Numbered from the whole stretch's first letter, positions 966-59,513 are shown. The stretch is DNA of 61,785 nucleotides, filler included, from Asterionella formosa (GCA_002256025.1; 26 parts of 26 records of this genome joined end to end with filler, not necessarily neighbours in it), one strand, 5' to 3'. The notes: generated by a model from the sequence alone, not told the origin. Numbers and translations are program-made.

Positions 966-2290
966 CTGCTGGGAAAGGCTGCAGCGCTTTTTCAGTTTGA
1001 ATTTTTGTAACGGTTACAGGTAATATAAAAACATGGAAATATTTTGAAAATTTTCATTGAAAATTTTCATCATTTCGGAATTAGTGGGCTGGTCAGGCAA
1101 CCAATGAAGTAGGTTGAAACAAGTAAGTGAAAATTCAAAGTACGCGCAATGCGCTGATTCCCGGACCTTCAAGAATAACGGTAATATACATAGAAATGGT
1201 AAAACAATCGTCAAGCACACAAGAATGATTATATCATGCAAAATCAAAAAAAATTGAACATGATGTTTGGAGCAACCAAAGTATGATATGCAATGTAAAA
1301 AAGAAATAGAAAATATTTTTTTGTTTGGAAACGAAATAAAAAATTTGAGTTTCAGTGGAGACAAATGCATTTTGGTACTTTCGCAGGCAACATTGACTTT
1401 CCATCATACAATCAAAGAGCAAAATAATACATAAAAGAACTTAAAAAAACTGACTTGGAGATTTTAAATTGAATCACCAGAATTGGGGCAAAACAGAAAA
1501 TCTTTAACCCAATCCACACTCACCATCCTACTATTCTCCGGCTGACATGAGAAGTGCAGTCATAAAAAACTGAACCAAGAACAAAGCTACCACAACTTTT
1601 TAAAGTACTTCCACACAAGGAAGTGACTACCAACCAACCCTTTCCACCGCCCCACCTTATATGGGCCATGGAGTGCAATGACGGCAACTCTAGAAATAGA
1701 ATAGTAAGAATGCGCTATAAAAATAATTAATATATATTAAAATTTAACAGCTGATCATATCTGATGAAACTATCGGTTCAATGACAAGATGGAAGCCTAC
1801 TAACTTTGACCTACCATAGTAAAATTTTGTGTTTTGAAACCTAATGACTTATCGAGGTCGCTTTTGAAAGTTCATTAATTGATTATTCACTACACATCAA
1901 ATCATGATATATAACCGCAGTTTCTATCCAGAGGTTAACTCCTGACATTATAGGGTACAGGGCTACCGGTATCTGTTTTAATCTACATGAGCCCTGTAGG
2001 TGTGGAGCAATCCTCCTCCAAAAAGTCGACCTGATCGACTTTTTATCAGTAATCAAAATATTGGAAGCGGAATTTGTACATTCAAAAACGTTCTCGCAGA
2101 CTTAGAGTCTTGCGTAGGTATGTTTTGCTGTGTAATTCTCATTTCGAAAAGACTCCAGGGTAAGTTCCCGCATCACTACACATATTCTGATTGGTTGAAT
2201 TTATTTTATGATTTACTCCCCTGCTCCAGATTGGCTGAAGTATTTGGGTCTTGTAAAGTCACGCCAGCCACATTCGAACCACACGTATTA

Positions 2291-2390
2291 NNNNNNNNNN
2301 NNNNNNNNNNNNNNNNNNNNNNNNNNNNNNNNNNTTAATTAATTAANNNNNNNNNNNNNNNNNNNNNNNNNNNNNNNNNNNNNNNNNNNN
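2291..2390. other. Artificial contig linker (first of 25)
   Basis: N44-TTAATTAATTAA-N44 (stops in all six frames). It recurs starting at 4680, 7069, 9458, 11846, 14233, 16616, 18999, 21387, 23769, 26151, 28531, 30911, 33291, 35670, 38047, 40423, 42799, 45174, 47549, 49923, 52296, 54669, 57042 and 59414. Contig lengths fall from about 2290 to 2272 bp. Confidence 0.99.
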
Positions 2391-2784
2391 ATAGGATCGA
2401 GTGAAATGTTACCAAACAAGGTGCGATGACAGACAGCTGCAGAAATACCTGAATCATCTCGAAGCGAAATGTAATTGGATTCTCGAATGGTGACTGGATT
2501 ATTTGAGTAGTTGCGATTGCGCCAATTGATGCCATTTCGACGAGTCTCAGTAGTAGTTGTGGTAGTAGTAATAGTGGAGAATGCCAAACCACAACAATAG
2601 CCGACAACAATCGGCTTCTGCAATATCATTCTGAGATGTGCACGTCTCAAATGACGACAATGAATGAATAAATGAATGAATGAGCGCAAACAAACTTGAT
2701 TTATTCCATGGATAATCGATGTTGTGGGGAAGGCGCGACAATAGAGTTGCTGTTGATCCTCTCTTTTGCTTTAGACAACAACAA

Positions 2785-2838
2785 AGGCGAGGCGAGGCGA
2801 GGCAAGGTGAGATGAGGTGAGGTGAGGTGAGGTAAGGC
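2785..2838 (+). repeat. Pentanucleotide microsatellite (GAGGC/GAGGT)n
   Basis: Tandem GGCGA/GGTGA units read directly. Confidence 0.85.
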
Positions 2839-3034
2839 AAACAATGAAAGCATCAAAATGATGATTATGATGATGATGATTCACTCTGTGTGTTTTCTAC
2901 ATGTAGAATATATATTGATATACCTATATAAATATATATCAACACATGAACAAATGACGGAAGAAACTGCCGTAGAGAAAGGATGTACCGGTGCACTGCT
3001 CCGAGGAAACTACCGGTAGACTACCGGAACCTGG

Positions 3035-3630
3035 TGAAGTATCTAACTAGAAGTGGTAGTATTTGTTGAATATATGAGCTTATTAATTAATCCTTATGTA
3101 CAACTCATTTCCTGAACTGACATCAAAGTATAGAATGGATGTTGAGTTCTCTCATTATTGAATTCCGATATATTTGATATAACCCTAACCCTATATACAT
3201 CTGTATCGATGTGCAGGATTGCTCACTCTCCCACACTTGAGGGAAAACCTTTTACCTATGAAAAGGTTTGATACGACGAATATTAATTCGTTCTGTAATG
3301 TGCATAGTGCGTTGAAAAGTAACTGTACCATTGGCATGTACTTGAATAATAGTTTAAGGACCTCGTCCACGATTATCCAAAGTAGTAGGATTATCCAATA
3401 ATATTAAATTGATAGAAGGAAATTTTAATGGATGTGTTTGTTGATTGAGAATCAATTGTATATCCAGCAATTGTCTGTCATGTATTAAATTAGAATCCAG
3501 AGGATATTGAATATTGTCTGTCAAGATGGGATGATTCAAGGAAACATGTAAGCAAGGGTTCATCATCTAATTCAATTGAAAAAGTAGATGTGGAAGTTGA
3601 TGTTGGAGATTGCTTTCGGTCAAATATCAA
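3035..3630 (-). mobile_element. Ty3/gypsy 3' remnant with integrase core deleted, PPT and probable 3' LTR
   Basis: 3420-3630 continues the gypsy of contigs 9/18/22 (KSPTSTSTSTFSIELDDEPLLTC, NHPILTDNIQYPLD). It then jumps to the integrase C-terminus GP*TIIQVHANGTVTFQRTMHITERINIRRIKPF. A purine tract GGGAGAG (3226-3232) precedes TGAG...TTCA (about 3225-3035). LTR limits are inferred. Confidence 0.75.
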
Positions 3631-6536: not shown

Positions 6537-7068
6537 ACTTTTCGAAATTTCGTCTACGTATGAGTGTTAATTATGTGGTACTTCACATGCATAAATGCCA
6601 CTCTTCACGTAAAAAAGATTACTTTTAACGGTTTCATGTGAAGTTTTAACTGTTTCATGTGAAGTTTTCACAATGAATTTTGAACGCGAGACTGAATTAG
6701 TTGATGTTTCAAATAATTCATTTGACTTTTCGAAATTTCGTTTACGTACGAGTGTTAATTATGTGGTACTTCACATGCATTAATGCCACTCTTCACGTAA
6801 AAAGGTTACTTTTAACGGTTTCATGTGAAGTTTTAACTGTTTCATGTGAAGTTTTCACAATGAATTTTGAACGCGAGACTGAATTAGTTGATGTTTCAAA
6901 TAATTCATTTGAAAGTTCAACTAAGATCCTGCTCTTGAGGCTAATACATTCGCAACACGCATTTTACTTAATGAAATAGTAAGGATATTTGTGGTGTCTA
7001 ATGTCATCCATCTGAGATCAAAGTTTTACGGTTGTACACATCACATGAAGAACTCACACTTACCGGTA
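6537..7068 (+). repeat. Dispersed AT-rich repeat with 21-bp subrepeats and ~187-bp tandem duplication
   Basis: 6537-6724 is duplicated at 6725-6911. Units of GTTTTAAC(G/T)GTTTCATGTGAA. Other copies at 7169-7434 and 11270-11392 (minus). Confidence 0.88.
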
Positions 7069-7168: not shown

Positions 7169-7434
7169 AAGTTTTAACGGTTGCATGAGAAGTTTTAACT
7201 GTTTCATGTGAAGTTTTCACAATGAATTTTGAACGCGAGACTGAATTAGTTGATGTTTCAAATAATTCATTTGAAAGTTCAACTAAGATCCTGCTATTGA
7301 GGCTAATTAATACATTCGCAACACGCGTTTTACTTAATGAAATAGTAAGGATATTTGTGGTGTCTAATGTCATCCATCTGAGATCAAAGTTTTACGGTTG
7401 TACACATCACATGAAGAACTCACACTTACCGGTA
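7169..7434 (+). repeat. Second copy of the 21-bp-subrepeat family
   Basis: Nearly identical to about 6810-7068, ending CACTTACCGGTA. Differs by a 4-bp insertion at 7304-7309. Confidence 0.9.
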
Positions 7435-8881
7435 AAAAAGCTCCCTCTTCCTGGTTTTCATGTTATGTAGGTTATTACCGGTACTAGGTAAATGTACTAC
7501 TAGCCAGTGGTAGGCAACCCGTTCATAATCATTCAATTAAGAGTTTACAGGAGAGAAGAAACCATTCGAACTCGTAATGTTTCCGCACACAGCGCACAAA
7601 GTATATCCGTTTCGTCCACTTCAGCATGACAATCTCGCCAATCAACCCGTAAACAAACACATTCTACTTGTTCTCGTTGAAATTTTCAATTCTCACATGA
7701 AACTACATCTACTATTGAGATTCAGCATAGAATGAGATACGAAAATGTGCGTAATAGACTACTGTCCACATAGCTATAGTTATAGAATGATTCTGATTAG
7801 AATGTATTTCATTTTCAGATTGCTCGCTCGTTTCTGCATTTGGCATACTGTACTTGAATTAACTATTGAACTTGTCTGCATCTTTGATACCATCAAGCAA
7901 GAGAGCGAAAGCAAGTGGCTCTTTTCACTGTTGTTTGCTCGTAGGAAGAATTTGATATCTGTATCGTCATTTGCTTGTTGGAATTGTCCGTTGCCTCAAA
8001 CTTGCTTGCCGTGTGCGTGCACACACTGTCGACTGGTTTTCAATGGTATGTTGTTCTTGTATTCACTGTTGAACTTGTCCGCATCTTTGTTACCTTCAAT
8101 AGAGCGACGCAGACGAAATGGGTCTCTTCATTGTTGTTTGCTCCTGGAAAAGTCGGTGTCCGTGTCTGTGTCATCCTCATCAAAAGAGAGACAAGTTGCT
8201 TCTTTCGTTGGAAAAATTGGTACCGTATCATCATTCACTCCTTCGAACCACTGTCCGTTGCCTCAAACCTGATTAGCGTCCAAGTAACGGTATGTGCACT
8301 GTTGACTTTAGTACATTACAGGCGGAGTGACTTGTTAGCTACTAAATTGCGTGATATAATAATATACCCTGTAGCACGTTGCAGAATACATTTGCTTCCC
8401 AATCATCTCATCATGATTGATAAGATGATACTGCGATATCATGATAGGGTTACATCGATGCATACATCACCAAAGTATGATACGTAATATTGAATAAAGC
8501 ACATCACATAGCTATGATTCATTGATCATAAAATTATGATGATTTTATGAAATGTTTATTATATAATTTTGATCATGTTAAAAGAATACAATGACCATAA
8601 AATACGATAAAATATGTACGCAAGTGTTACCAAGACATCATAGAATATAAATCAGGCAATCATAAAGTATGTTAATTATTATATATGTTTGTCGTTTAAT
8701 GTATACACTTAAAGTCAACACTTAATATGATAGTATTATACAGTGGATAGGATCTAAGTATACAGATGCATTGATATGTACATCACTATAATATGATTTG
8801 TGACATGGATTGATGCATATCACATACCGGTATCCTCAACAACCAGCCATCACGTTCATTGTTGTGTCGTCTTTCCTTGTT

Positions 8882-10140: not shown

Positions 10141-11269
10141 AAATCTTTTTTAGAGAAAAGTTTTTTTTAATCAGCCCTAAGGAAATGAACCTCAAGATAT
10201 TATTATTCTGATGCCACCAATTTTTAGCTACTACTCTGTCTACTCACGCCACTTTACATACTCTTGACAAAGACTCTCCCTGACATGTCTGTTTTTGACG
10301 GAAACTCTCTTGTCGCAGGCAGCTCCCCTCATCGCCTGCCGATACTTATTTCAGTTTTCGCCTTCCTTTCTCTAGCACTGAATCAACAACAAGAACTTGC
10401 TAATTCATCGAAAAGTGCACTTAAACAGTCGAAAAATAATATTCAACCATCATCCAGTGCATTTTCTAAGCCCACTCCCCTTACCACCACTGATGATAAT
10501 CCCTCCCCATCCCCACCAGACTCTTGCACACTTAATCACCCACAAGGCAAGAGCAAAAAATGCTTTCCTCAACAAATGGCGATAAAGAGGACCAATCAGC
10601 AACATCAGTATCTTCTGCAAATAAAAAGTATCATGCATATAGGATCAAGGGTATTTTACACTAAGTGGCACAGTATTTTCATACTATGTAAAAAAAGTCA
10701 ATTAGCCAAATCATAAATGAAATTATTGAAAGTTCGATTCTAATATGGAACACTTTAACCAAAGAATAGTTATTACTATTCCCCATGATAACATTATTGA
10801 ACTCCGAGAAGGCTTTTAGGCCTAAGAAGGGGAACATCGGACCTTAGCTATTGGAGGTAAAAATCAGCTAAATTTATCGCAACCCTAATCCAAGAAATCG
10901 AAAACGTCTATGGCCAATAAGCTGAAATGACATGATTGGTAAACATCAATGTCCGAAAATTTTGTCAAAATGATCCTCCAATTGGGGGTCAAAAAATTCC
11001 AATAAGGTAAAAATTGGTCCCTGTGTTAACCCATATTATTAATATCAACTACCGGTAGTTCCGTCTTGGAAATCACTGTATGATTGTGAAAAATCACATG
11101 AAAAAAGGAAGAGTAATATTGTTCACTACAATAAGTGCATATGATATGATACTTGAAGAGCACAGCAACCAGAAACTGTAGATTTTCCAGCATGCCTGAA
11201 ATAAGACACCACAAATATCTTTACTATTTCATAAATGAAGATGCATGTCGTAAGTGAAAAATCATCCAT

Positions 11270-12240: not shown

Positions 12241-12584
12241 TAGGCAATGTATTACATAGCTGCAGTCAATGTATAGTATAGTAGTGACAATGGGAATATA
12301 GCAAGCTGTGTACTGGTGCTCATTCATGGTTAAAGTAGCTAGTCAAGGTATATTTTGCATCCTGCTTTGGCACAATCTCATTGCTTGTAGTGATTGGCCT
12401 GCACTAGAGTCACCATGTGTAACTAGTTCACCATCACTGTAATAAGTAACATTGACATTGATTCATCAAGTTCTGCATCATTATAAGCAATACCATCATC
12501 ATGAAGTGATGATCCAAATACAATTCAAACCATAATATCACTGAGAACCATCATCATGTTGTTTTGCCCGCAGTACCTGGTACT

Positions 12585-13058: not shown

Positions 13059-14332
13059 AGCACATGATTTTGAGTGGAATTCTCCTGAACGTTCTGATCA
13101 GAAATAGTTACATTTTCGATTAGTAATTTTGGAGTGTTATGTGGCTCGAAGTAAAATAAAGGGAAAAATTGAGGAAAAACTCTAAAATACTCTTTTCAGG
13201 AAAAACTAGTAGGTTTCTGTTAAATGGATTGGTGAACATCACTCAACAAAAGATTGATCCAGTTGGAATGAGTTCTGGACCAGGAAAGCTGCGTCCTAAG
13301 GATCTAGCTCATTTAGATTAGAGCGTTCGCTCGTTGCATACTAGCACCAAAGAATAATATTTTTTGGAAGGATCTCCTGCTAGCAAAATTGAAAGTCATT
13401 TTTGTCACATGACTGAACCATCCATGCTGTGCTCCTGTATGGCATGATTTCTTGGTTTCGGCCATTGCTTTTGCTCGATACGCTATGACCTCTTTCTCAA
13501 GCTGTTTTGGAAGGATGTTATTGCCAAATAAGACAATGAACTCCTGCTTGTGTTCTGGCACTAAGTGAAGCAACCAAGCAGTGTCTTGTCAGCATAGGTG
13601 AATCAATACCTCGACTGTGGTGTGTCCATCACCAATCTTGCACAGGCCATGGCTGGCTGGTGATACAGTCTTTCATGCATTGTACCTTGAGGTCCATGCA
13701 CCAACTTTAATTTGACATACTGGTAAAGTCAATATTTTGTTTACCTTTGGTCTCTGACAAGAGCAAGAAGGCATTTCGGGTACTATGAGCAAGCAAGTCA
13801 TCTTGAATTTTCCGGAAAATCATATGTAGACATACTACGCATATAGATATATTTTTATATATTACACTGTTATTTTAAACTTTGTGCTTGTGTTGACCAA
13901 ATTTGGTGGTAAACCAAACACAATTTTGGGGTTATGAGTTTGCTTTAATATACATCACAAATGATGTAATTTTTATTTATTATCAGAGTGCGCCCACTAT
14001 GTGTACCGGTAGTGACACAATACCAGTAGTCGCATGACGGTACCGGTAGTTCCGGTTTCCTGAATTGTACGATGACTATCGTGTAGATGAATTATCGGTA
14101 CCAGGGTACCACCTAAAAACTGAGAGTCATACAAACTTTCAGTTTTGTACTGATAGTCATAACAAAACGGGGTAATCACACGGTTTGAGACGAATATTTG
14201 TAATATTATAAATCTGTATTAGACAAAGTCCTNNNNNNNNNNNNNNNNNNNNNNNNNNNNNNNNNNNNNNNNNNNNTTAATTAATTAANNNNNNNNNNNN
14301 NNNNNNNNNNNNNNNNNNNNNNNNNNNNNNNN

Positions 14333-15677: not shown

Positions 15678-16070
15678 CTATTCCTGAATCTGGATGTCCT
15701 CAAGAAGCCGGAATGAACAAACTCCAAGGTTATTGTGGCTTTTTGCCCTTTTGGCAGCATTTTCACTAGAGTCATAGAGTTCAATAACTTGAGCAAACTT
15801 GTTGACAAACTTGTCACTTGTTTTCTTCAAAGCTGCAATATTCTTGCCAAGGAAACCAACCGTGCACAGTTCCGTCCCATCAAGGATCAGAACAGCCTTG
15901 ATACCTGCCTGATCAACTCCATCAATCGGGACCACTGCTGCCTTGAACCGAACACAATCATTCGGCCTCACAATTGCCCCACAGCAGGCATGCTGCTCAC
16001 AGCTTCTTCCATTGGTGGTACCTCTGAGGCCAAGGATTTCGCCATCACGAATGTCGTCCGCAATCATCAT
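15678..16070 (-). CDS. Small Cys/His-containing protein with HIRAN-like C-terminal pattern, convergent with the transposase
   Basis: Intact 130-aa ATG ORF: EILGL..TNGRSCEQHACCG..VRF..AGIKAV..DGTELCTVGFL..IA..FAQVIELY. The IKAV...G...VGFL...A spacing resembles HIRAN (NAIxV...G...GYxP...A). Confidence 0.7.
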   Translation of the reverse strand: MMIADDIRDGEILGLRGTTNGRSCEQHACCGAIVRPNDCVRFKAAVVPIDGVDQAGIKAVLILDGTELCTVGFLGKNIAALKKTSDKFVNKFAQVIELYDSSENAAKRAKSHNNLGVCSFRLLEDIQIQE

Positions 16071-16715
16071 GTTGCCAACCGGTATATGTGACGATATTTT
16101 ACAGGTGATGATACTTTACCGGAAACAGTAGGGTACCGGTAATATACGAAAATACATACTAATAAATAGAATACGTTTATGTTGTGTTATTTTTTCTGTA
16201 CACAGGAAATATTTGGGAGTGTTGCGCCAGATGTACAAAGGGGGGTACAGGTATCTGGGGGGATACGAGACACCAGGTTTTACGGTAAACTAATTTGGTT
16301 TTGTCACTGCCATCGAGAGCAAGGAAATACGGGATTGACAAGAAAAAACCTTCATTTGCTTGCCAATCCTGGTCACATTTTAGACTTTAAAAATGTGTAC
16401 ATGGCAAGCAAGCTAAGGTCTGAAATGTTGTCAGCATGATATTTCATTACATTTTTAGTTCAATGGCGATTTGATTTGATTGTGTAACATGATACCTAGA
16501 AACAAAAGCAACGAAGCTAGTAAGAAATTCTTGTCCCACTGTCCCTAATTTTGTACAGACAAAGCAACTCACCCGATGACTATTACAATTGTACATGGTC
16601 TTCAATGAAGGCAAANNNNNNNNNNNNNNNNNNNNNNNNNNNNNNNNNNNNNNNNNNNNTTAATTAATTAANNNNNNNNNNNNNNNNNNNNNNNNNNNNN
16701 NNNNNNNNNNNNNNN

Positions 16716-21386: not shown

Positions 21387-22971
21387 NNNNNNNNNNNNNN
21401 NNNNNNNNNNNNNNNNNNNNNNNNNNNNNNTTAATTAATTAANNNNNNNNNNNNNNNNNNNNNNNNNNNNNNNNNNNNNNNNNNNNTGTTGAGATCTGGC
21501 GTACCGTAACGAGAGGAGGAACAAAAAGAAATCACATTGATTTACGCCGCACATTTTGCTTCAGCCAACATCAGCTGTAGTTGTCGCATTCTTGTGACTT
21601 CGGAGAAAATATTAGAACACCAGCCATGTTCTTTGATATACCGGCATATCTTGATTATCAGTCCTGAGTCCTCAGCAATTCGCCTGATGGTGCTAGAATG
21701 CAACTTGCTGGTTGAATCTTTATTCAGCAGAATCGACGATGAGTTCTTTGTCTTCAAATGACCCCAAGGGATACCCATTCTGCGACCATCTACCAATCAC
21801 AAATTGTTATTTTAATGACCCACCGGGCGACCTTCACTCACTGCGACTAAAAGTATAAATTTCTTATTTATTTGGGAACCAGGACAACAAGGACTCCAGA
21901 GTGCCTGGTACCAGGATGCCGGTAGAGCACAACATGGTCATCAAGAGAAGAACATTTCATCATCCATAGAGACATCAGAATCGAAGCATCCTAAACATAC
22001 GACGACAAATTAAACGTAGTTTAGGATGTCGATGACAATATCTATCATCACTGGTACCGGCAAAATAGAAGTTTACCAGCAGTCTACCGGTACTGGGACT
22101 ACTGGTGTATGGTATGGTACGGTAACTCCCATGGTTGAAAATAGTGGCTGTGATTCTTAAAAATGTTTCTCCGTGGGCATTTTGACTCCCACGACTTTCT
22201 CCGGTTCAATCACATGCGACCTTCGCCACATGTGGTCAAACGTTTGTATTTTCCGTGGTGTTAAAGTCTGTTTTTCCGATAAATAAATAAATTCTTCTTC
22301 GAGTTTCACCAAAGTTTGTTCAGTAGAGCCTCTCAACAAATGCCTATAGTCCCTTATGTTACTAATCTTATTTTGGAAAATTGGCCATGAAGATGCCCCT
22401 TAAGCACAATATAGCAGGAGACAACCACTAGCAATGTTATGTCAACCAGCTGATTGACAATGGTGAGGGTGCTTTTGGTTGCATTGGTGAACTAATGAAC
22501 ATATATAGTAATGATAACAACCTATAGGCATTAAAGACTTGGCTGATACTATCATATGTTTTGAGGCACTTTGATGCTGATCTGGTGCAGTGAAAGAGGG
22601 AATGGTAGCAAAGGACGACGAGGATAAAGGAAGAGGAGAGTGGTTTGAGTCAATTAACTAACCTGACAAGCTCAAGAGGAGTGTGGAAGGGGGTATCTTA
22701 AAAGAGTGATGAGAGTATATTGAAACTAGTCTTTGTAAAGATAGAGAGTAGAGCGAGAACACGAGACAGGCGCTCACGGACAAACAGACAGACACATGAA
22801 TCGACGTCATGATAGGACAGTGATTCATATCATCTGGCAGATCTGTAAGATATTTGCTAGGCAATTTGCATGCAATGGTGGTTCGAAAACTTAATCTCCA
22901 AACAATCCATCTGACAATCGCAATTTGCCATGACACCTCCATCACTATACCTGTACATTGAAATACCTGTT

Positions 22972-24640: not shown

Positions 24641-25715
24641 ACTGCTTAAGACCACTATGAACTGCTTAGACCACTATAACGGGGTAATCTTACATTTTGT
24701 ACTACAAACTTTTTCAATTTTAGCAATACGACAATATTTACTATGAACAAGTCATTTGTTTCACGCATCTACATTTAGGATGGCTTAACGCCCGATCGAT
24801 GTTGTGTTCCAGTTGGTGAGATAAACGACTTCGAAAATGTTGAGTGAGGCACATCGGAAGAAAATAAAATTACCTCGTTTAGCTGGGCCGACATTTTATA
24901 TTCATATACGATATTATATAATGTTTTATACTCCAAATTAATATAGCTTCCTTTAACGCTTTTCTTGAGGTGGATTATAATTACGGCGCGATTGTGTGCG
25001 ACATCCCAATGTAAACATGCACACTACCAGTACCAGGTACCGGTAGTTCGCACCATAGCAATTCAGTGATTTTGTACTGTCAACATAGATGCATCCTGAA
25101 ATGCTCTCGAGACCATCACAATATACCACATTTTCATTTCTCCGGATCTTACAACTTAGTATAATGAACCGAAGAAGTGCCAAACCCCGAGCAAGTACAG
25201 AGTTATTTGTAAGTCTCTAGATAAGGATTTAGTAAAGCTTGTTCTAAACAACAATGTCAGAGAAGTAGATGCTAGAAAGGCTAGCGGTAGAGGAGTTGTT
25301 TTACCAAGTGGCGCTATTGCTATCTAGATTATTAGTAGCAGACAAAGTTGACACAGTAACGTGGCTAACAAAAGACATGGTGAAGTACCCTTTGAAGAAA
25401 TTGAATAATGACAGCAAAGATCTAGTAGTAGGGGGTTTGAATTCTATAGTGCTATTGGATTGTTCCCCAGCAGAACGAATCGAAACTAGCAGTACACTTA
25501 CCTTTGGAACCAGAGCCACCACTACTGCATCGTCCACTTTGACACCAGATACATGTAATGCAGATAAACACAGCAGTGACAGAAACAATAATCTAGCCGA
25601 TAGACCGGAACAGCATGAGACTCAACAAACACAACTTTCCGGTGAGAAGGGGGGAAACAAATACAAACGAAAAAAATGTTCAATTGAGACCATGAAACTT
25701 GCTCCAGCACCATAA

Positions 25716-26250: not shown

Positions 26251-26440
26251 AATATACTACCAAAACGAGATAACAAATTCTACCAAAAATTCTACATGGT
26301 AGAATTTTGACCTGTTACATACCTCATACTGACCACGTAAATATTTGCCAATACCTTGGAGGTATTTTCTGTCCTCACTAGAAGACTACCAAGGCCTACG
26401 AGAAAATACTACCTTGGTAGAATTTCGGGACTATTATAGA
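26251..26440 (+). repeat. ~200-bp MITE-like repeat rich in CTACCWWGGTAG palindromes, copy 1
   Basis: Aligns to the reverse complement of 38800-39005 (ACCACGTAAATATTTGCCAATA, CCTTGGAGGTATTTTCTGTCCTCA, GGCCTACGAGAAAATACTA, CCTTGGTAGAATTTCGGGACTA). Confidence 0.88.
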
Positions 26441-29558: not shown

Positions 29559-30400
29559 ATATCCTTTTCCTTGTATTCTATCTAAGAAAGTAATAAAAGG
29601 TTTAAGCAGTTGTTCATAACTAATAGTCATTTGTTTATCATGGTCTGTTATAATGGTAACAATGGGAAATTTCTTTTGGTCAAGTCATTGTGTAAAAATG
29701 TGCACATAGAAAATGCCTGTTACAGTAATATGTATATTCATATGATTTGTACCACAGCTGTTTGCACTTCTGTACTCATTCATAGTATGAAATGCATGTA
29801 AATGAAGAGATTTCTGGAATAAGGAATCTTGACACTCGGAATTGATATTGGAAAAACCCCAATTGTAGCAAAGTTCTTCAGAAACTGGTTTTTCCAGAAA
29901 ATTATTCTTTTAAACAAATAGATTTTGATAAAAATCGAAAGTAGTGGGCCAGTTCAGAAAGATTAGGTAGAAATTTATAAATGTTGAATTAAAATTTCCG
30001 GAGGGGTCGAAAGTCTACTTTTGTACAGTCAATCATGGTATTCTACCCAATTACCATTGCCGCTAGTAAATTGCCTAGACGATAATAGCTACGTTATCAT
30101 ACTAGAGCGAGGTTGGGGTAAAGAAGCACTTAACTATGAGGAAAACAAACCTAAATTTCTTTTTTACCTGGTACCGGTACCCGGTAGCAGGTACCACAAC
30201 TTGCTCTGGAAGGTCCAGTAATCAGCGCACATATTGTGCAGGTTGCTCATTTTCTGTTCATTGATTCACATACAAGAAAAAGGCAGGGGTACACACCCAA
30301 AAATTGTCGAACCCCTGAATTTTGCGCCATTCCATTATATTTTAAATAGTTTTTTACACCGATGTTAAGCTGTTACTCGTTTTATTGTCAAAATGAACTG

Positions 30401-30910
30401 GAAGCCAGCAGTCAGCAGTCAGCAAAAGAAGTGAGCAGTCAGCGATTTTTCAAAATATCAGTGAATCAAGTCAGCAGTGAGCAAAACAAAGTCCGCAATC
30501 ACTAGTTAGCAGATTGAAGTCAGCATTTTTACAATAGTACATCATGGTAGCAATATGAAGAAGTAGATAGCAATGACCTTTTAAGGCATCAATTTCTATT
30601 TCACAGCCTATCATCATGTACAGAGTACCCCTGATAGTATGAATGTAGAAAGCATCGCTTTTAGGATCCCAACAACAAAAAGATGCTTTTCCATCATTAT
30701 TGAAAAATGAAAAGTAAACACGATTTGTACACCGGTACCGGTAGTTGGTCTCTTCCTGTGTACAAAGTAGCTTTCTTGACGTTGGCATGTTGAAGTTAGC
30801 AGTCAGCAAATGAAGTCAGCAGTCAGCAAATATTTCATATTTTCAGCAAAGCAAGTCAGCAGTTAGCAACAAGAAGTCTGCAGTCAACCAGTTGAAGTTG
30901 GTAGTCAGCA
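30401..30910 (+). repeat. AGTCAGCA repeat arrays (30401-30530 and 30790-30910), family copy 2
   Basis: GCAGTCAGCAGTCAGCA units; homologous to 811-965. Confidence 0.78.
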
Positions 30911-31487: not shown

Positions 31488-31916
31488 TTTTGACAATAAA
31501 TTTTTTTATTTTTCTTTCCTTGCCGATCTCGATAAATTTATTAATTTGAAAAATAATGCGATGAGTATTATGTGCTGGTAAATATCGAAATGATTTCAAT
31601 CAATTTTGTCGTTCATCCGATACAAATTGGTTATGATCCTCTCTGTTCACGAATTGTGTATCAACTACCAGTACGGTATAGTATGAATAAGAATCGTAAA
31701 TAATTTCTATATCGGTTCAATATATGTAGAGCAATTGTTGTACCGGTATATGGGATGGTCGGGAATTGGTTCACGAATAGATCCAGATGCTCGGGAAATA
31801 CAATACTCATCATCACCAGTTAAAGTGGAAATGGCCACTTTAATTAAACGCCATCCATTTATTGATTAAACAATAAACTAGAAGACGATCTCTTTATTAA
31901 AGCTATACTACCGGAA

Positions 31917-32168: not shown

Positions 32169-32994
32169 CTTAATATCAATTCGGGAATGCCAGCCATTCT
32201 ATCGGTACGCAGTTTACCGGTACCCCGACAGTAAAATACGGGCTGAGTACAAGAGATGGCTGGTTGCAACCTGAAGATCAATATAGTAGGATACGTAGGC
32301 CTTGGTATAGATTTCTTTTGCACTCAATAACTAGGAGTAAAAAATTGTGACGCATACAAAAATTGAGGCAAATTCTTTGATACATATACCCGTATATATA
32401 TTGCCCTCCGCTCATTTCCCCTCAAAAGTTATGTAACATTGAGCTGTTGTTGTTGTTGTTCATGTTTGTTGATTTTGCTGCTTGCTTCTCTTTTGCTTTG
32501 TTGCTCTGTTGTTCACTATGTTAGATTGTAAAAATAGGTTAGAACCTTGCAGAAAGTTGTGTCGAAATTGAGGGCACAGGCATCCATCCTGTCATCTTGT
32601 TGTTTGTCAAGATCTTTCCAAACTTTGAAGTATGCACATATATATATTGTCTTGCTTGCCTTGAAAACATCTTATCCTTTTTGTTATTAACACTTTGTCT
32701 GTTGACATGCTCTCTTGCACCACAGACCAGAAATTCTCTTTACACTTTTTCCCCTTCAGAGAAACCCAACAGTAAAAATTGTTGGCGCAAGCCCAAGTAT
32801 ACTTGATTCCCTCCGAGGGATGCAGGAGAGTCTCCTGCAAGTTCACAGTGGATTCAATCATAATGAAAATATAAACATTTGATGCATTACGCACAACATG
32901 CAAGAAGGCAGCAATTATTTTCAATAACAATGGAAAGGCAGCGTTCGATATTTTGCCCTTTTATCTTCGTCAGATGCTACCTTGGAAGTGTCTA

Positions 32995-38045: not shown

Positions 38046-38799
38046 TNNNNNNNNNNNNNNNNNNNNNNNNNNNNNNNNNNNNNNNNNNNNTTAATTAATT
38101 AANNNNNNNNNNNNNNNNNNNNNNNNNNNNNNNNNNNNNNNNNNNNTATATACTCAGCAACGTAGATGCTAATAGGCATTGGATCGAAGTATCGTAGTGA
38201 AAGAATTTAGGGGACTGTTGGTAGATAGATTTTACTCTATTGGTATTGGTATTTCCGGACAACATAAAAGAGTACCGGTAGGTAAAGATTGGCTAGATTG
38301 CCAATCAATTGATATCTACTGATCATCACGCTGGTGGTCATACACAGCTAGTCTGTATTTAGGCTATTATTACACAGATGCATGATTTCATGCTAATGTA
38401 GCTACATTATTTTTTTTCACTATTTTTCATTAGCTGTATATTGATTGTTTTCACTTCATTTCGGGTATATGTATATTAGACATATACACTCCTACCAATA
38501 ATAGACTTGGTCCTTTATTTACTGTAATATAGTGCTATAGTATGTGTACTCGTGGTGACTCAATATTAAGTACCAGGTACTCTAAATACATAAAATGGTC
38601 TATTCCCTCTTACACGTACCCTGGTAACCAGTCGATAGGAGCAAATGGGCGCCGGTACTAGGTACTGGCACCTGGTACCAGAACCGGTATTGTCGCTAGC
38701 TTTGTGCACTGTACTCTAGTACTAGTAAAGTACTAGTGCTAGCTTTGACTACGGGTTTAACTGGGAGTTTAATTTTTTACGACTACATTCCCGGTATAC

Positions 38800-39005
38800 C
38801 TATAGTAGTCCCGAAATTCTACCAAGGTAGCTAGTATTTTCTCGTAGGCCTCGGTAGGCTTCTACTGAGGACAGAAAATACCTCCAAGGTACCAATATTG
38901 GCAAATATTTACGTGGTCTAGCATGAGGTATGTCTGTACCAGCTCAAAATTCTACCTTGGAGAATTTTTGGTAGATTTTTTTTCCTCGTTTGGGAAGCAT
39001 ATTCT
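38800..39005 (-). repeat. MITE-like palindromic repeat, copy 2
   Basis: Reverse complement of 26251-26440 with small insertions at TA sites. Confidence 0.88.
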
Positions 39006-44569: not shown

Positions 44570-44632
44570 CGTTTAGCGGTGGCTTACAGTTCAAAAGTGG
44601 CCGTAGCGGTGGCTTACAGTTTTTAAGTGGTA
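44570..44632. repeat. 30-bp tandem repeat abutting GG-TA, candidate DNA transposon terminus
   Basis: TAGCGGTGGCTTACAGTT...AAGTGG twice, then TA. Confidence 0.5.
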
Positions 44633-45273
44633 CCCGGTACAATAAATTATCCTCTTGCTATGAAATATACTACATAGTACATACGGTACCTGGTAGTATA
44701 TCTTGAGCTTCCGTCCATCATGGTTGCAGGAGGAGATTGGGATGGAGCACATGCAGCGCGTAGATTCGCCATTAGGGATTCGGGCTAACCGTTTGATTCA
44801 TTGGTTCACCACACAATCTGGAGAAAGCACCGGGTACCGGTATTTTTGTACTGGGAGGGGGAAATTGGGTAAATGCAAAACATGCCACCTGCTGCAACTG
44901 CAACTGTTCCAGACTTCTTGTTCTTCCACCACCGCACCTGATGTATTGTATTTTTCATACAGGCAGATTGGAGATTGTGGCATTTCAAATGTACGGGTGC
45001 GGGTAGTAATTTTATATGTATCATAGGTATTACGTATCATTGTACATGGTACCTGGCACAGTACGTAGGCTAAACCATCCGCCTGCGGTAACAAGATCAG
45101 TTGTCCCGAAGGCGAAGATCTTCGTGTCGAACTTGCTTTAGCAAAAGTCACAAACGTTTATATTTTGCTCGTCNNNNNNNNNNNNNNNNNNNNNNNNNNN
45201 NNNNNNNNNNNNNNNNNTTAATTAATTAANNNNNNNNNNNNNNNNNNNNNNNNNNNNNNNNNNNNNNNNNNNN

Positions 45274-49102: not shown

Positions 49103-50022
49103 GTTGCTGATTTCTTTCCAAGTAACAATACTACAGAGTAATGCAACAACTTAGGACCACAAAATTAAGCGCAACGACTACCGGTACATAATTCATAATA
49201 CCGGTACCTGGTACTACCGTATACAAGCAATTTTTTGATGGCTTGGTGAGAATGCGTGCAAATCAGTGGGTTGATGACGATGCACCATGCACACGGAGAG
49301 GCTATGTAGCGGTATTCGTTACATACTAAAAATATGCAGTATTTCATCACATGGAGCGAATTGCTAATACGGCACGTTTCAGTGATGTGGTATGTAGGCA
49401 AACATTCATCCAAAAGTTGAAAACAACATGCAACAGTCAACTAAGCTGCAAAAAGGTGTTGGTTTTGAAAACATTGAACAAGTGGAAACAAGAATCATAT
49501 TATCACTACGAAATACCTACAGTATGACAACTGAAACTGGATGTGTCACTCCTGGATACCCAATTTGAAATTTTTGGAGAAAATAATCTGCTTTTTGGAG
49601 CATGCAATTTGTTGATATGGATGATGATTACAAGATATTACTCCATATTTACCTAGGTAGGTCAGTAAAGTCATTGAACTAATTCTAAACATGAGCATGT
49701 CTACTAGAGTAATATGTGTTTGCCTAGATTTACCTTTTTATTTTCAAGTGCATTTAAATAAAGATATGTATAATTGTAAATATGAATCAACAGCTCAGCA
49801 ATCAGTGCAACCTTCTCTGTATAGCTACATCAAAGATCCCCCAAGCAGCTCGTTGGACTGCTATTTTTTCTCCACTGCTGTGAGTTCAACTCTACCCAAA
49901 AAACAATAAGATTCCCCATCCTNNNNNNNNNNNNNNNNNNNNNNNNNNNNNNNNNNNNNNNNNNNNTTAATTAATTAANNNNNNNNNNNNNNNNNNNNNN
50001 NNNNNNNNNNNNNNNNNNNNNN

Positions 50023-52295: not shown

Positions 52296-53324
52296 NNNNN
52301 NNNNNNNNNNNNNNNNNNNNNNNNNNNNNNNNNNNNNNNTTAATTAATTAANNNNNNNNNNNNNNNNNNNNNNNNNNNNNNNNNNNNNNNNNNNNGATTG
52401 AGAGTATCTAAAATTGGTTGAATGGAAGCCATTCGGTATTGTAGTTCCTGACGAAACAGTCGTCGGTATGATTGCAGCATTCTTTGCTGACGAAATAAAT
52501 GGCATACCAACATTTGTCCTTGTCGCCAATTGTGGGTTCATTTTTGGTTCACATAATGAAGCTCGGCAGGCCCCTCCAAGATGGAAGAGGAATACTGCAA
52601 TCCCAAGCATTTCGTATCAAAAGGTCACTTTATTCTCCTGACGACGTAGTGGTGGAACTGTTTGCATTAAGTTGATGATTGTGAGAAGTACAGTACTCAA
52701 CGAACTGGAGGACGATGAATCAGTGCTTCCATTTAACTTCTAAACAAACCAATGAATGTTTGAGTATTGGGGTTATTGCCTGAGGCATGTTTTCTTCTTC
52801 CTTCGATATCGTTATTATTCCACAACACGAATATTTAGTCAATTTACTTCTAACCATCAACAGCTTACCGTGTGTTGTATTCGGCTGATGAACTTATTCT
52901 TGCTTCCCCCTGATTTTTGCAACAATGCATGGGAAAAATTGAAACGGATAAAAGCAAACAAAGCAAGAAAAAATCATTTTAAAATTAGCGATGATCTAAT
53001 ACCTTGGGTACAGAGTGATGTTTACAAGTGTGCATATATGAATATATGTATACTGTGAATTCAGGTTTGATAAACTATTGACATACCGGTATATTAATTA
53101 ATACTCCACACTCCTCATTCATATCGGGATATCAAATCGCCAGGACGAACACACCGACGCCGTAACAAACAGCAAGTTGCGGTAATTTTGCTGAAGCTAA
53201 AGATTTAGCTATGTTTATCTTAGATGAAAATGTTAGTTTAAGGCCGTTGCTAACGGTGGACCAAAACCAAAACCAAACAGTGTTTAGGTTTCGGTAACCC
53301 TAAAAAACGATGCTAACGGGAGTG

Positions 53325-53440
53325 AAAAACCCAACGCAAACGCATTACGTTTAGGGGATTCCGTGCCCATATCCCAATAAGTTACCCAAACGCATTACGT
53401 TTAGGTTTTTTTTTCCCAAAGTTACCTAAACGTAGGATTC
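53325..53440. repeat. Short direct/inverted repeat cluster
   Basis: CAAACGCATTACGTTTAGG twice, AAGTTACC twice, and inverted CCTAAACGT. Confidence 0.65.
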
Positions 53441-53826
53441 CATGTTGACTACTTTGAATGTAGTCACTAGAAACCCAATAATTATCGTCGTAGAATCACT
53501 ACATATAGGACGGAGCATACCGGTATATATCATATCTATATATACAACAATAGCTATACGGTAAGTACTCTGTACCAGGGTACCACACTGGCGAGAACAA
53601 CAACAACAACAGCAACAGCAACAACAACAAATCATCGCAGCACTTTGGATCTACTTTCGAAGAAGTTACAATGACTATTACTCGACAATCAAATTAGACC
53701 TACTCAATTCACAAGCTAGAGCGTTGTACGATTGAAAAGGTCGCTTCAATTTGCCATCATCACATCCAGTATTGGTATAGCTAGAGATGTAATCATAAAG
53801 ATCAAACTACAAAGCAAACGACATAT

Positions 53827-54668: not shown

Positions 54669-54768
54669 NNNNNNNNNNNNNNNNNNNNNNNNNNNNNNNN
54701 NNNNNNNNNNNNTTAATTAATTAANNNNNNNNNNNNNNNNNNNNNNNNNNNNNNNNNNNNNNNNNNNN

Positions 54769-55598
54769 TTGCCGTGCACCCTGACATGAAGAGCCACACC
54801 GGTGGCGTGATGTCTTTTGGAACTGGAGGCATCATATGCAAGTCGACCAAGCAGAAATTGAACACAAAGAGTTCGACGGAGGCTGAATTTGTGGGCGCCA
54901 GCGATTATCTCCCGAACACGCTGTGGGTAAAAATGTTTCTTGAAGCACAGGGATACAAGATTCAAGAAAGTTTCTTCGAACAAGACAACGAGAGCGCAAT
55001 TAAACTCGAGAAGAACGGACGAATTTCGGCAGGGCCAAAGTCTCGGCATATCAACATCCGCTATTTCTGGATTAAGGATCGATCGGTAGATGAAGGAATC
55101 ACCATTCGCCATTGTCCAACGTTGGAAATGTTGGGGGACTTCTTTACGAAACCACTGCAAGGAAACCTGTTCAGAACATTCCGAAATGTGCTTCTAGGAG
55201 CTGCGCACGTCGATACCCTGACTGCCAGTTCCCTGGCAACAGCCGAGGAGCGTGTTGGAAAAATTCGAGCTGACTGCCACAGGACAGGCGTGAAGGGTAT
55301 AGTAGACACGAGAGAGTACAGTACTACAGTTAAAACCGTACAGCCGCTAACAAGAGTTACCTGGGCTGACGTGGTAAAAGGCACCACACAAGGAAAAGCA
55401 ATCAGAGGTCAAGAAAATATGTTAAAGTGCAGTGTGAGTAATAAGAGTGTTTCGAGACCATTATCTCGAAACAATCCAGTTAGTAAAGTTTAAGTTTGAC
55501 AACTTCCTCGTTGCTATCAATTTCATCAACTGTATTCGATTAACACAGTACTAGGTTCAAGGCCTACGATACGGTCGAATACGGTAGTTGTTACAACA
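54769..55598 (+). mobile_element. pol: Copia RNase H plus 3' LTR (55253-55598), second insertion locus of the 34437 family
   Basis: Near-identical to 36167-37001. The flank diverges right after TTACAACA. Confidence 0.95.
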
Positions 55599-56432
55599 CC
55601 ACCTGCACTGACACGCCGAATTCGGTCGGCATACGCATTTGTTCGCCGTCTACCACAAGGCAAAAATCCTGTCGAGAAACGATTGGTTGTTGTCACTGGT
55701 TCAGAGGCGGAGCTGTATATTGATGAAATTGATGCTGGATTTATGCACACAGTTGGAAGACAGGAGGATGGAAGTGGTGGTGTTGTGGCGCAAGTAGGAC
55801 TCACAGGTGCAAGAGGGACAGAAATTCGCCGAGTTAGTCAGCAGAGGAACGAACTCCTTGGGCTGTACAGTCAACAGAAGGAAACACAAAGGGATGTGAA
55901 GCAGTTGCAGGCACAAGTCGAATTGATGGCAAAGGATATCCGCAAGCTCAGCACGGCTTTTAACAGATTCTCAAGGATACCAGGGCAAAGGTTTAGAGGC
56001 TCCAGTGTTCCTCCAGTTGCGGTGGTTCAATTGGCTGTGACAGCACCAACTACAATTGGAATTGATGCAGATGTAGAGGGACAAATCAACAACGAACAAG
56101 CCGGTGACAATTTGCTAGCTGACCTTGGCTCTTTTATGGTTCCAGCCTATAACAGTAGTCTCAGCAAGACTCCAAAGTCACTGTTTGTTCTATGGCAGGA
56201 GTTTGAAGTCGGAATTGCAGGGAGAAAGGCAGCCAGGCTATTTACAAGGGTTGAGAGGGGGAGGAATAAATTCATTTATTATCGGCGAAAGGTTGTATGG
56301 GATTCAGTTGCAGAGCAGATTAGACGTGGTTACAGTGCTCAGACAGCGATTGACAGAATCTATGAGGTGTATGGTCAAGAACTTTCAGTGATTGATCGAC
56401 GCACAGGTGGAAAGCCACAACTACGTATTTAG
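55599..56432 (+). mobile_element. GCR1_C-domain C-terminus of a Crypton-like element, interrupted by the copia
   Basis: Frame open from the LTR junction: PPALTRRIRSAY..NPVEK..LSKTPKSLFVLWQEFEVGIAGRKAARLF..ERG..YYRRKVVWD..AIDRIYEVYG. Confidence 0.7.
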
Positions 56433-56962
56433 TGAACTACTACCACATTAACTAGCATGCACGTTATATCATTCTCATTGTTTCCATTTAATGTTGTTAT
56501 ACATTTGATTTCATTTACCGATGTGTTAATATGTATTGGACACATACATAGAGTTAATAATCACTGTACACATATGTATGTATATATTGCATTGCACGAC
56601 GAAGTACCAGGTACCAGGGTACGGTACCAGGGTACCTGGTACTCCTACCTGATAGTCGTACTGATGATATGCAAATGTTCATGATCAGGTACCAGGTACT
56701 GGCTTTGTACACGGTGCTAGCAAATTACTAGTGCACTAGCTTCCACTACGGGTAGCATTCTCCGTCGAATAAAAAGTGAATACCTATATAATATATACGT
56801 CCCTGGAACTGGTATGTCTTATTGCTACAGTACCAGCTGTATTGTTACATAGATCATGCGTAGCTCAACATGCCGGCACCTTGTACCTGGTACCAGGTAC
56901 GTGGTACTCGGAGTACCTCTTATCATTAGAATTTTGGAAAGCTAGCTGTATACCTGTACCGG

Positions 56963-57041
56963 TACGCGTGTGTTTCGTCCCTACAATGGAAGACGAGTGG
57001 TACGAAGACCAATACTGCGCATCAAGCAACGGAACGGAGCG
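56963..57041 (+). mobile_element. Copia fragment matching 24515-24591 (minus)
   Basis: TACGCGTGTGTTTCGTCCCTACAATGGAAGACGAGTGG...GGAACGGAGCG. Begins within a TACCGGTA. Confidence 0.88.
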
Positions 57042-57141
57042 NNNNNNNNNNNNNNNNNNNNNNNNNNNNNNNNNNNNNNNNNNNNTTAATTAATTAANNN
57101 NNNNNNNNNNNNNNNNNNNNNNNNNNNNNNNNNNNNNNNNN

Positions 57142-57425
57142 AAATCGAAATGGAAGATGAGCAAAGAACGGAAATGATGCGAATCGCGTCTGAGCGTTTG
57201 AGCTTTGCTGCTACTGAAATTGCCCTCGTTATGGGAAATGCAGATATGGTAGCTGTCTATGGTACTACCCGAACCAATGTGCGAAAGTCTTCTGTTGATT
57301 CCAAGAATGAAAAACTAGGAAAGGAACACATGTACGGAGACGACAAGGCGTCACATGTGAACGGCACCCTCCTTTCACCCTTGCGTTTGCCTACACCCCT
57401 ATTGATCATGAACCGATCTGCTTAG
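57142..57425 (+). CDS. Possible 3' end of an unknown gene
   Basis: Open frame from the contig start with protein-like composition; no motif recognised. Confidence 0.3.
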
Positions 57426-59513
57426 ATACCATGTTAAAATTACGTAATCTATCGCACCTAATTATACCTTAAATGACTCGAGTCCACCATAGCTCATGTT
57501 TTCATTTTTCACGGGAAATCGGCTTGAAACCGTCATGCGTTGATTCGATGTTGGCTTCATGATATTCATGAATCGACATCCATGGCGCCGACAGTGCAGC
57601 AAGAGCGACAGGCTCAATTGTTTATCTGGGCGGTCGACAATCTGCATCATGACCATCGTCCTATTATATAGTGGTTGTGTGACTACTTGGCAGTCGTAAA
57701 TGTCCTGGGGACATACATTGTATGTGAAGGCGATTTGCGAATCGTGAAATTTCCTGAAAATATCATGCATTTCTACAGGAACGATACTACTGGTATCGCT
57801 CTTGTGTTCGAACTTCCTGAGTGCGCTCCAGTCACTAACGAAGCCGACGACGGGAACCAGCCAGTTTGCAGTACTGCGATTGCTCGACGAATATGATGAC
57901 CTTTCGTGCGTGATTGTGGCTTGTGGCGTGTACCGGTAGAGGTCCAAAATAGATTTAAGTAGAACCAGGTACAAGGGTACCAGGTACTACTATTACAATA
58001 GAGTACAAAATTATCCAACTGGTCGGTACAGAGCTCTTGACATATGATTGGACATTTTCAAAAGGGGCATATCATGAAAGGTTCCTATGACTGCTTAAAT
58101 AGATGCCCCGTTTATGAAAAGACGGCAGCAATGTCCAAGGGTAGCCAATAACTATTCATTGGTTTGAACCGAAACCTTTTTGTACGTTTAGTCCAATCAA
58201 AAGTTCAGCTTTTTTTCAGAAATTGACTGTTCCAACCACAAGCAGACCCTCATCATTCCCTGATGACCTATGGTGCTTACCGTAGCATTACATATACATC
58301 AGACTACTATGCATGTGAATACTTTAGCTATATTTATATAAATCTTTAGCATACGACAAACGTTACCTATATAGTCGAGCTCTACTAATGTAAGAATAAA
58401 ATTAGCTCGATGGATCTGACATAAGTAGTGGGAAAGTGGTACCAGGTACTGGTACTGCAACTTTGTACACTAATCCAGTTATATGATTCAGTTATAGACA
58501 TCTAGAACTAATATTTAGGCTAGTGAAAGGCATTACCCTTTCAGACCACTTACTACAATGTCTGATCTTGATGTAGGGACTCATACATTGATTCCCTAAG
58601 AATGGTTAAAGGGTCACCTAGACTAAACTAAGACTTATTCTCTAGTAACTGATAACCCATAAGCAATATTTACTTATTATCAAAGCCAGGACTAGACTTG
58701 GCAAATATAACTGAATGGAATAGATTAGCCTTTAGTCTAAACCAATGGTAACAAGACCTATTAGTATATACAGACTCCAGGGATCTCAAATGACCCTTTC
58801 CAAGAATGGATCAAACAAGCAAGCAAGCAAATATGGTTCTATTTAGGGCACCTGACATTGTTTTGCTCCTGATTGCCAACAGTGTTCCCACCAAGCCAAA
58901 GATACTCCATTTCTAAATGTGTGCCTTCACCATTTCAGTTCAATTCATCAGCCCCTGAAGTAGCAGCCAAGTGAGGGTGTCATGTACCTGAAGATGTTGG
59001 AATGATGATATTATAGCAGAAGAAGCTGAAGTAAATGAGGAAAGCAATCAAAGATCTAGCATTTGAATCATATTTTATATCATTTTGCATTGTTGCATGC
59101 CTTTCAACAATGTATTACATCAAATGCTCAAAACATTCACATTTTTCTGGAATCACTTGATTAACTTCTCATCCTCATCAGATGATGTTCATATAGCATT
59201 ATCTCTTTCAGCAAAATCATCCATATCAATCCATTCCTCTCCTGGGAATTCAATATTGGACTTTCCTTTCTTGTTATTCGCCTTTGAACTACTTAGCTAG
59301 CTAGCCACACAGCTATGGATAGTGAAGTCTATGTGGCGCTTCCTGGCCTAGTATCCAGCCTAGGTTCCAAGGTTGCAAAACCAACCCATGATCAACTCAA
59401 CAGAAGTTGTGATNNNNNNNNNNNNNNNNNNNNNNNNNNNNNNNNNNNNNNNNNNNNTTAATTAATTAANNNNNNNNNNNNNNNNNNNNNNNNNNNNNNN
59501 NNNNNNNNNNNNN

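Follow-up and report, generated by a model that had tools for sequence, protein, structure and literature searches.

The DNA analysed here, called the window throughout, is a stretch of 61,785 bases from the freshwater diatom Asterionella formosa (GCA_002256025.1), and our subject is the palindrome TACCGGTA together with a family of related words, TACC(N0-2)GGTA, that recur in it. The window is not a single locus; it consists of 26 separate contigs of 2272-2290 bases each, placed in descending order and joined by linkers (N44-TTAATTAATTAA-N44). Its sole clear host gene encodes a tRNA-binding-domain protein (47738-49102, minus strand), whose best named relatives are found in diatoms (Cyclotella, Thalassiosira, Nitzschia and others, at 40-50% identity), with unnamed relatives at up to 65%. 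Much of the remaining DNA is made up of Ty3/gypsy, Ty1/copia and pogo-like DDE_1 transposase sequence.

An over-represented, TA-bounded word

The over-representation of TACCGGTA is real. An initial annotation, made from the sequence alone, had listed 24 coordinates for it, and every one of these proved to be an exact TACCGGTA, with no further sites in the window. When the window was shuffled 100 times with dinucleotides preserved, a mean of 0.26 sites and a maximum of 3 were obtained, and none of the shuffles reached 24. Markov models expect 0.35 sites at order 1, 0.58 at order 2, 1.6 at order 3 and 4.7 at order 4, and the annotation's view that the motif lies far above chance is borne out by both comparisons. 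Models of orders 5 and 6 expect 12 and 21 sites, but these expectations are circular because the motif itself supplies 48 of the 52 both-strand counts of TACCGGT. Among the 256 palindromic 8-mers TACCGGTA is the sole outlier (24 against 0.58 expected), the next being ATATATAT at 15. The exact motif occurs in 17 of the 26 contigs, i.e., in most of them, as had also been noted, and the TACC(N0-2)GGTA family in 18.

The signal survives repeat masking, since at least about 20 of the exact sites have unrelated flanks. A comparison of the flanks of 25 site clusters found few related pairs, and outside the motif most flanks have nothing in common. Sites 7061 and 7427 belong to a single repeat, present in two overlapping contigs, a few other sites lie in small repeat families, and the clusters of contigs 24 and 17, once aligned, are similar only at the level of the motif. 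A single repeat family as the source is ruled out by these unrelated flanks. An assembly or library artefact was likewise ruled out, as the organism's sequence is present in runs of 15 studies; the sequence of four contigs (52396-61785) was found there, mostly in runs labelled as freshwater or lake metagenomes.

The family comprises 47 units in the window: 24 with CCGG between the bounding TA dinucleotides, 13 with CCWGG (TACCWGGTA), five with CCAGGG/CCCTGG (TACCAGGGTA/TACCCTGGTA), two with CCCGG (TACCCGGTA/TACCGGGTA) and three other forms with a two-base spacer, so the variants named by the annotation do exist. Spacers of 0, 1 and 2 bases account for 24, 15 and 8 of the 47, i.e., the half-site spacing is not fixed, and a 48th unit has a spacer of three bases. 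The enriched unit is the whole TA-bounded word. GGTACC was considered as the unit in its place and rejected, as the 17 sites left without the family members are no excess over the 7-19 expected. Of all segments delimited by two TA dinucleotides, CCAGGG is enriched 51-fold, CCGG 41-fold and CCWGG 24-fold, with a weaker excess of CCAG/CTGG and CCG/CGG. The outer flank is merely biased: G stands at position -1 in 54 of 93 flanks (58%) against a background of 24%, and the extended consensus reads RG-TACC..GGTA-CY.

Neighbouring units most often share one TA (7 of 46 pairs), and direct abutment was seen in none of the 46. The two units are identical in none of the seven TA-sharing pairs, so the tandem identical units of a microsatellite are absent. 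Decay by point mutation alone should yield mostly substitutions; in the window the excess over expectation is 8.2 + 13.7 (21.9) for length variants vs. 17.2 for substitution variants. Among substitution variants the CpG transition TACTGGTA/TACCAGTA is the most frequent, with 8 sites against 2.3 expected, which looks like neutral decay.

The annotation had further reported no sites inside intact open reading frames (ORFs). Taking as supported those ORFs that have a Pfam match or a homologue, which cover 16,916 of 59,285 bases (28.5%), we found there none of the 24 exact sites (binomial p = 3e-4) and none of the 47 family sites (p = 1e-7). The statement thus holds for supported ORFs and fails for an unsupported ORF of 174 amino acids (aa), which contains the exact site at 57931 and a variant at 57978.

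Candidate transposon borders and related loci

The transposase on contig 7 matches DDE_1 (E = 1e-22) and is 99.7% identical to intact, full-length forms of 407 aa; its cluster holds 79 variants at 90% identity or more, the intact 407-aa forms included. A convergent ORF of 130 aa forms a cluster of its own with 37 variants. Contigs of 10,432, 2,631 and 2,855 bases occur in both clusters (matched by size, the DNA not having been seen), and because these three sizes are common to both, the transposase and the 130-aa ORF probably travel together; the element would therefore extend beyond 16070. A search of the ESM Atlas with the 130-aa ORF gave a best score of 0.78 and, as a lead only, a HIRAN-carrying cluster at 0.77, and assigned no family. 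The pogo-like transposase has been amplified recently, and its family membership suggests that it is active and targets TA.

Several borders in the window place CC directly beside TA. Beyond the start of the 130-aa ORF, ACCGG-containing copies at about 16077 and about 16114 precede the TACCGGTA at 16134-16141, after which AT-rich DNA follows, and this site is a candidate for the right end of the pogo-like element (...GGGTACCGG, i.e., ...TACCGG) plus its TA target duplication. The repeat common to contigs 6 and 19 begins CCAC[C/T]TAAAAACTG, immediately following the final TA of a family unit, and this border is a candidate TA/CC transposon terminus. Contig 4 terminates in ...GGTACCACC, again a TA/CC border, and a truncated copia fragment joins unrelated DNA exactly at TACCGG/TA, the TA at 56963 being the fragment's first base pair. 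Scanning genome contigs with the candidate repeat terminus gave eight chance matches in prokaryote bins and no related ones, and scans of viral contigs with the transposase and the candidate element end gave no matches. The sites and associated features are collected in Table 1.

Table 1. Family units and associated features, with positions counted from the first base of the window.
Feature	Position	Strand	Remarks
TACCGGTA	1964..1971		isolated, contig 1
TACCGGTA with half-copies TACCGGT and TACCGGAA at most 50 bases away	3011..3018		contig 2
TACCGGTA	7061..7068		exact end of contig 3; same repeat copy as 7427 (contig 4)
Two TACCGGTA (7427, 7476)	7427..7483		contig 4
TACCGGTA	8825..8832		isolated
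TACCGGTA within the 14-base palindrome AACTACCGGTAGTT	11050..11057		
TACCTGGTA	12574..12582		
TACCGGTA (14004, 14041), TACCAGGGTA (14099)	14004..14108		last TA of 14099 adjoins repeat starting CCACCTAAAAACTG
Dispersed-repeat end; second copy at 44500-44630, opposite strand	14109..14232	+	CCAC directly after TA
Pogo-like DDE_1 transposase gene, lacking the first 40 codons (contig start)	14335..15438	+	
130-aa convergent ORF, probably of the same multi-copy element; no family assigned	15681..16070	-	
TACCGGTA, 64 bases past the start of the 130-aa ORF	16134..16141		candidate right end of the pogo-like element
TACCGGTA; decayed copies TACCAG, TACTGGT and GGTACCGG nearby	22085..22092		
Chain of TACCAGGTA and TACCGGTA with one TA in common	25031..25045		
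TACCTTGGTA within a repeat common to 38820	26410..26419		
Chain of three unlike units (CCTGG, CCGG, CCCGG), consecutive TA sharing	30165..30186		
TACCGGTA	30736..30743		
TACCGGTA	31741..31748		
TACCGGTA	32215..32222		
TACCGGTA (38273), TACCAGGTA (38571), TACCCTGGTA (38617), TACCAAGGTA (38820)	38273..38829		
TACCCGGTA (44631), TACCTGGTA (44687), TACCGGTA (44835)	44631..44842		44631 adjoins second copy of the CCAC... repeat
TACCGGTA (49179); chain of TACCGGTA and TACCTGGTA (49199-49213)	49179..49213		
TACCTAGGTA	49650..49659		
TACCTTGGGTA, three-base spacer	53000..53010		marginal member
TACCGGTA	53084..53091		
TACCGGTA (53518); TACCAGGGTA then CCAC (53573)	53518..53582		
Chain CCAGG, CCAGGG, CGG, CCAGGG, CCTGG	56605-56641		contig 24
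Second chain (56884-56899) and single units (56690, 56957), in one stretch with the preceding chain	56605..56964		
TACCGGTA (57931), TACCAGGTA (57978)	57931..57986		within unsupported 174-aa ORF
TACCAGGTA	58440..58448		

The tRNA-binding-domain gene has its ATG at 49102, and the units at 49179..49213 stand 77-110 bases upstream of it. A search of metagenome contigs for relatives of this gene gave 593 pattern matches, none of them confirmed. Several contigs overlap one another or represent alleles or paralogues: contig 15 matches contig 16 at 98.8% identity in the reverse orientation, and contigs 9, 18 and 22 are gypsy copies of 95-97% identity. Near 20449 on contig 9 (columns 850-854 of the gypsy alignment), one copy reads TAGCTA and two others TA. 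TAGCTA is over-represented 2.7-fold in the window (25 sites against 9.2) and is not of the CC/GG type; it is a second TA-bounded palindrome and could be another kind of scar.

Other repeats were also observed. TTAGGG-type words are enriched in the window, and between two TACCGGTA sites, at 53240-53440, repeated CCTAAACGT/ACGTTTAGG stands together with telomere-like CCCTAA/TTAGGG words; CTAAACGT is enriched 9.5-fold. A 189-base tandem repeat runs from contig 3 (6537-7068) into contig 4 (7172-7434), with a diverged copy on contig 5 (about 11200-11390). Contig 24 carries a very high-copy repeat at 54769-55604 (also at 34437-35273 and 36165-37002); 7300 short contigs of one run align to contig 24, and single positions are covered by as many as about 90 different ones. 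Next to the repeat, an ORF (55500-56429) matches GCR1_C weakly (E = 2e-4, which falls short of the Pfam cut-off), and poly(A) RNA contigs cover it; the element may be Crypton-like or another unclassified element.

A metagenome scan for a two-unit chain returned 120 loci, and the adjoining DNA was examined for 80 of them. Motif densities in these loci are biased upward because the motif itself found them. Most are chance matches in prokaryote-like contigs, with the motifs inside ORFs. Nine diatom-like loci (78.8 kilobases (kb), 44-46% G+C) carry eukaryotic genes, among them those for a DUF6824 domain, endonuclease V and a MutS-Smr protein, and contain 119 TACCWGGTA against 1.5 expected, with only 13 TACCGGTA; in a few further eukaryote-like loci CCGG is the main form. 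Across 15 eukaryote-like loci, no motif was found in 73.4 kb of ORFs of at least 170 aa. Tandem intergenic DNA (21.6 kb) holds 82 motifs, divergent DNA (5.3 kb) 10 and convergent DNA (2.6 kb) 2, and these last two are the seeding match itself. Single long intergenic regions hold up to 16-17 units, and 11 of the 21 tandem regions hold none.

Among these loci is a second diatom-like organism, which we call the second diatom, and its clusters show no mutual homology beyond 50-120 bases of low complexity. The motifs have a mean relative position of 0.65 toward the downstream gene when 82 motifs are taken singly and 0.56 when averaged over 10 regions, with a median of about 650 bases to the downstream ATG. 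Here too, neighbours most often share one TA (30 of 136 pairs, no fewer than nine of them through ascertainment), G stands at -1 in 70%, and the excess over expectation is 43.7 + 7.2 (50.9) for length variants vs. 34.3 for substitution variants. Two loci, L022 and L075, have clusters upstream of two related genes at positions that do not align, and in the L107/L114 and L022/L075 alignments only the coding parts aligned.

The intergenic DNA of these loci has further peculiarities. In L025 (2200-3300), L078 (4700-5800) and other loci of the class we term type I, long intergenic regions are made up largely of TAC/TAG-based words besides TACCWGGTA, among them TACTAGTA (15-fold), TAGTAGTA (19-fold) and also TAGCTAGTA, and nearly all segments between TA dinucleotides begin with C or end with G in the second diatom. 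The eukaryote-like contigs L047 and L017 carry dense GGTACC/TAGGTA and CCGGATCC simple repeats alongside TACCGGTA chains; this low-complexity DNA may be of an unrelated kind.

Proposed excision footprints and competing explanations

The explanation we favor, at a probability of roughly one half, is that the TACC(N0-2)GGTA words are excision footprints of a TA-inserting Tc1/mariner/pogo transposon with CC...GG ends. According to one report (PMC6943129), Tc1/mariner excision leaves 3' overhangs of transposon sequence on the flanks, end joining yields footprints in which TA dinucleotides enclose the 2-4 bases at the start or the end of the transposon, and the canonical footprints of Sleeping Beauty, TACAGTA/TACTGTA, occur with deletion variants alongside. 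By analogy, insertion would duplicate TA, and excision would leave a few end bases on each flank to be sealed by end joining, two per end giving TA-CC-GG-TA; uneven trimming or filling would give TA-CCWGG-TA, TA-CCG-TA and similar forms. Each scar would present two new TAs in a G/C context, where reinsertion and excision would build TA-sharing chains of unlike units. Scars would persist in non-coding DNA, where six or seven extra bases are tolerated, and would then decay, fastest at CpG. The resident pogo-like element, or a relative of it, would have CC...GG ends, target TA and have made the scars.

The initial annotation had proposed excision footprints as one option, and much of what was found agrees with it. 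Three of five footprint features were seen, namely a TA-bounded fixed insert, a canonical form with length variants, and a transposase of the right superfamily with recent amplification. The TA-sharing chains of unlike units, the three TA/CC borders, the copia junction at TACCGG/TA, the mostly unrelated flanks, the CpG transition as leading substitution and the absence of units from supported ORFs also speak for it, indirectly. Rough arithmetic puts the rate needed for the observed density at the order of 1e-4 fixed excisions per genome and generation during the time a scar takes to decay, which is not extreme.

Nevertheless, a number of points weigh against footprints. No complete, two-ended TA-CC...GG-TA element was found, inverted-repeat scans of the window and 20 loci having matched only low-complexity DNA; the left end of the pogo-like element is absent from the window, and its right end is a candidate only. 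No pair of empty and scarred alleles (TA vs. TACCGGTA) was found, contigs 15/16 and the retrotransposon copies being without such an indel, and the sole TA-type insertion among the retrotransposon copies is the change from TA to TAGCTA. Contigs of about 100 bases from three DNA runs, aligned to contig 24, showed no indel at its nine units, in a multi-copy region where site identity is uncertain. CCAGGG is no simple prefix-plus-suffix of the CCAC... end, and CCWGG is not known to arise from any 2-4-base stagger through simple annealing. To account for the strong G at -1 (58% here and 70% in the second diatom), the element would have to prefer its target unusually sharply, and a longer protein-binding palindrome would suit this bias equally well; the lean toward the 5' side of the downstream gene in the second diatom also fits a regulatory role, and the densities at the other loci carry the upward bias already described.

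These last points lead to the strongest of the alternatives, which we consider unlikely: that the words are binding sites of a dimeric DNA-binding protein, a diatom cis-regulatory or chromatin element kept by selection and often arranged in upstream arrays. A palindrome with an extended consensus, its absence from coding DNA, the two window sites lying 64-110 bases upstream of start codons, the 5' lean of the second diatom's clusters and the clusters upstream of the related genes in L022 and L075 would all suit such sites. A half-site spacing of 0, 1 or 2 bases, with length variants commoner than substitutions, does not, and overlap through a shared TA would exclude simultaneous binding. Single intergenic regions holding up to 16-17 copies, while 11 of 21 tandem regions hold none, argue the same way; a median distance of about 650 bases from the downstream ATG does not correspond to a core promoter, positions are not conserved between L022 and L075, and the top variant is a CpG transition, as neutral decay predicts.

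Another possibility, which we rate somewhat lower, is that the words are not scars but remnants of transposon ends, i.e., repeats at or near the termini that bind the transposase of the pogo-like element or its miniature derivatives, left over after internal deletion and decay. Three ACCGG-containing copies lie within 65 bases at the candidate pogo-like end, a similar triplet occurs near 3011 on contig 2, TACCAGGGTACCAC is found at both 14099 and 53573, and 6 of the 48 exact-motif flanks begin with GTT. Remnants of this kind are hard to reconcile with flanks that mostly share nothing beyond the motif, with second-diatom clusters that are non-homologous outside 50-120 bases of low complexity, and with TA-sharing chains of unlike units, which would not be expected of them.

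More speculatively, and in our estimate improbable, transposon ends or scars might have been taken over as a genome-wide array bound by a host or domesticated pogo/CENP-B-like protein, marking or insulating upstream regions of many diatom genes with a lineage-specific spacing (CCGG here, CCWGG elsewhere). In a milder version, scars may be self-seeding, each recreating a preferred G/C-TA-G/C target, such that one transposon family writes the commonest non-coding word.

Still more doubtful is replication slippage, by which the words would be seeds or fragments of a (GGTACC)n-type simple repeat growing in low-complexity intergenic DNA. GGTACCGGTACC does contain TACCGGTA, chains exist, the intergenic DNA of the second diatom is rich in TAG/TAC simple sequence, and many other loci with GGTACC chains are present among the read contigs aligned to contig 24. 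Yet slippage should produce identical neighbours, and none of the seven adjacent pairs in the window is identical; the exact sites are mostly single units that lack a complete GG/CC on the outside (of 93 flanks, 28 have GG directly before the unit, 14 of these owing to shared chains), and by itself GGTACC shows no enrichment.

The annotation's second option, a methylation- or mismatch-repair-driven process like that of cyanobacterial HIP1, could draw on the cores CCGG and CCWGG, both of them classical targets of methylation, and on a commonest variant compatible with methylated CpG, but it is very improbable and finds no support, given that none of the 47 units lies in supported coding DNA, that the 73.4 kb of ORFs at other loci hold none, and that such a process gives no reason for TA boundaries, length variants or TA-sharing chains.

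Significance and comparison with known systems

If the words are excision scars, they would stand for tens of thousands of earlier transposon jumps in a major algal group; with 47 units in about 42 kb, non-coding DNA here carries, by rough extrapolation, about 1 unit per kb, and the corresponding density in the second diatom is about 4 per kb. Cut-and-paste activity and the repair of double-strand breaks in diatoms could then be measured directly, the scars would serve as lineage-specific markers (CCGG vs. CCWGG), and part of the unusual composition of intergenic DNA in diatoms would be accounted for. Motif discovery in diatom promoters may in that case mistake scars for regulatory elements. 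If they are functional instead, they would represent an unusually abundant regulatory element, undescribed as far as literature searches show: full-text searches, with subscription journals and supplements outside their scope, returned nothing relevant on the motif, its variants or diatom transposon footprints.

Four known systems invite comparison. HIP1 (GCGATCGC) of cyanobacteria is likewise an 8-base palindrome far above expectation, but it occurs frequently within genes and is not known to form length variants or chains, whereas the diatom motif is TA-bounded and avoids supported coding DNA. Homotypic clusters of transcription-factor sites resemble the arrays in being intergenic and palindromic, with a modest 5' bias in the second diatom; they differ from them in the variable half-site spacing, the overlapping units, the up to 17 copies per region and the lack of positional conservation seen here. 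Stowaway/mariner-type miniature inverted-repeat elements resemble the words in their flanking TAs, in their abundance close to genes and in their dependence on a transposase of the Tc1/mariner type; the units here differ in being only 8-10 bases long, with neither internal sequence nor shared flanks.

Footprints are normally studied at single loci. Those of Sleeping Beauty differ from the words described here in their inner bases, which here are CC/GG, and a parent with CC...GG ends is so far a candidate only; the literature searches, moreover, returned no description of footprints that are the most over-represented non-coding word or form TA-sharing chains. The closest likeness is nonetheless to the footprints of Tc1/mariner/pogo elements as they appear in two reports (PMC6943129, PMC4561436), which share with our words duplicated TAs around a few symmetric bases, a dominant canonical form accompanied by deletion variants, and W at the centre of the odd-length form. 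Footprints are of a known kind, and what would be new is a footprint that has become the dominant non-coding word, that forms chains, and whose canonical form differs between diatom lineages.

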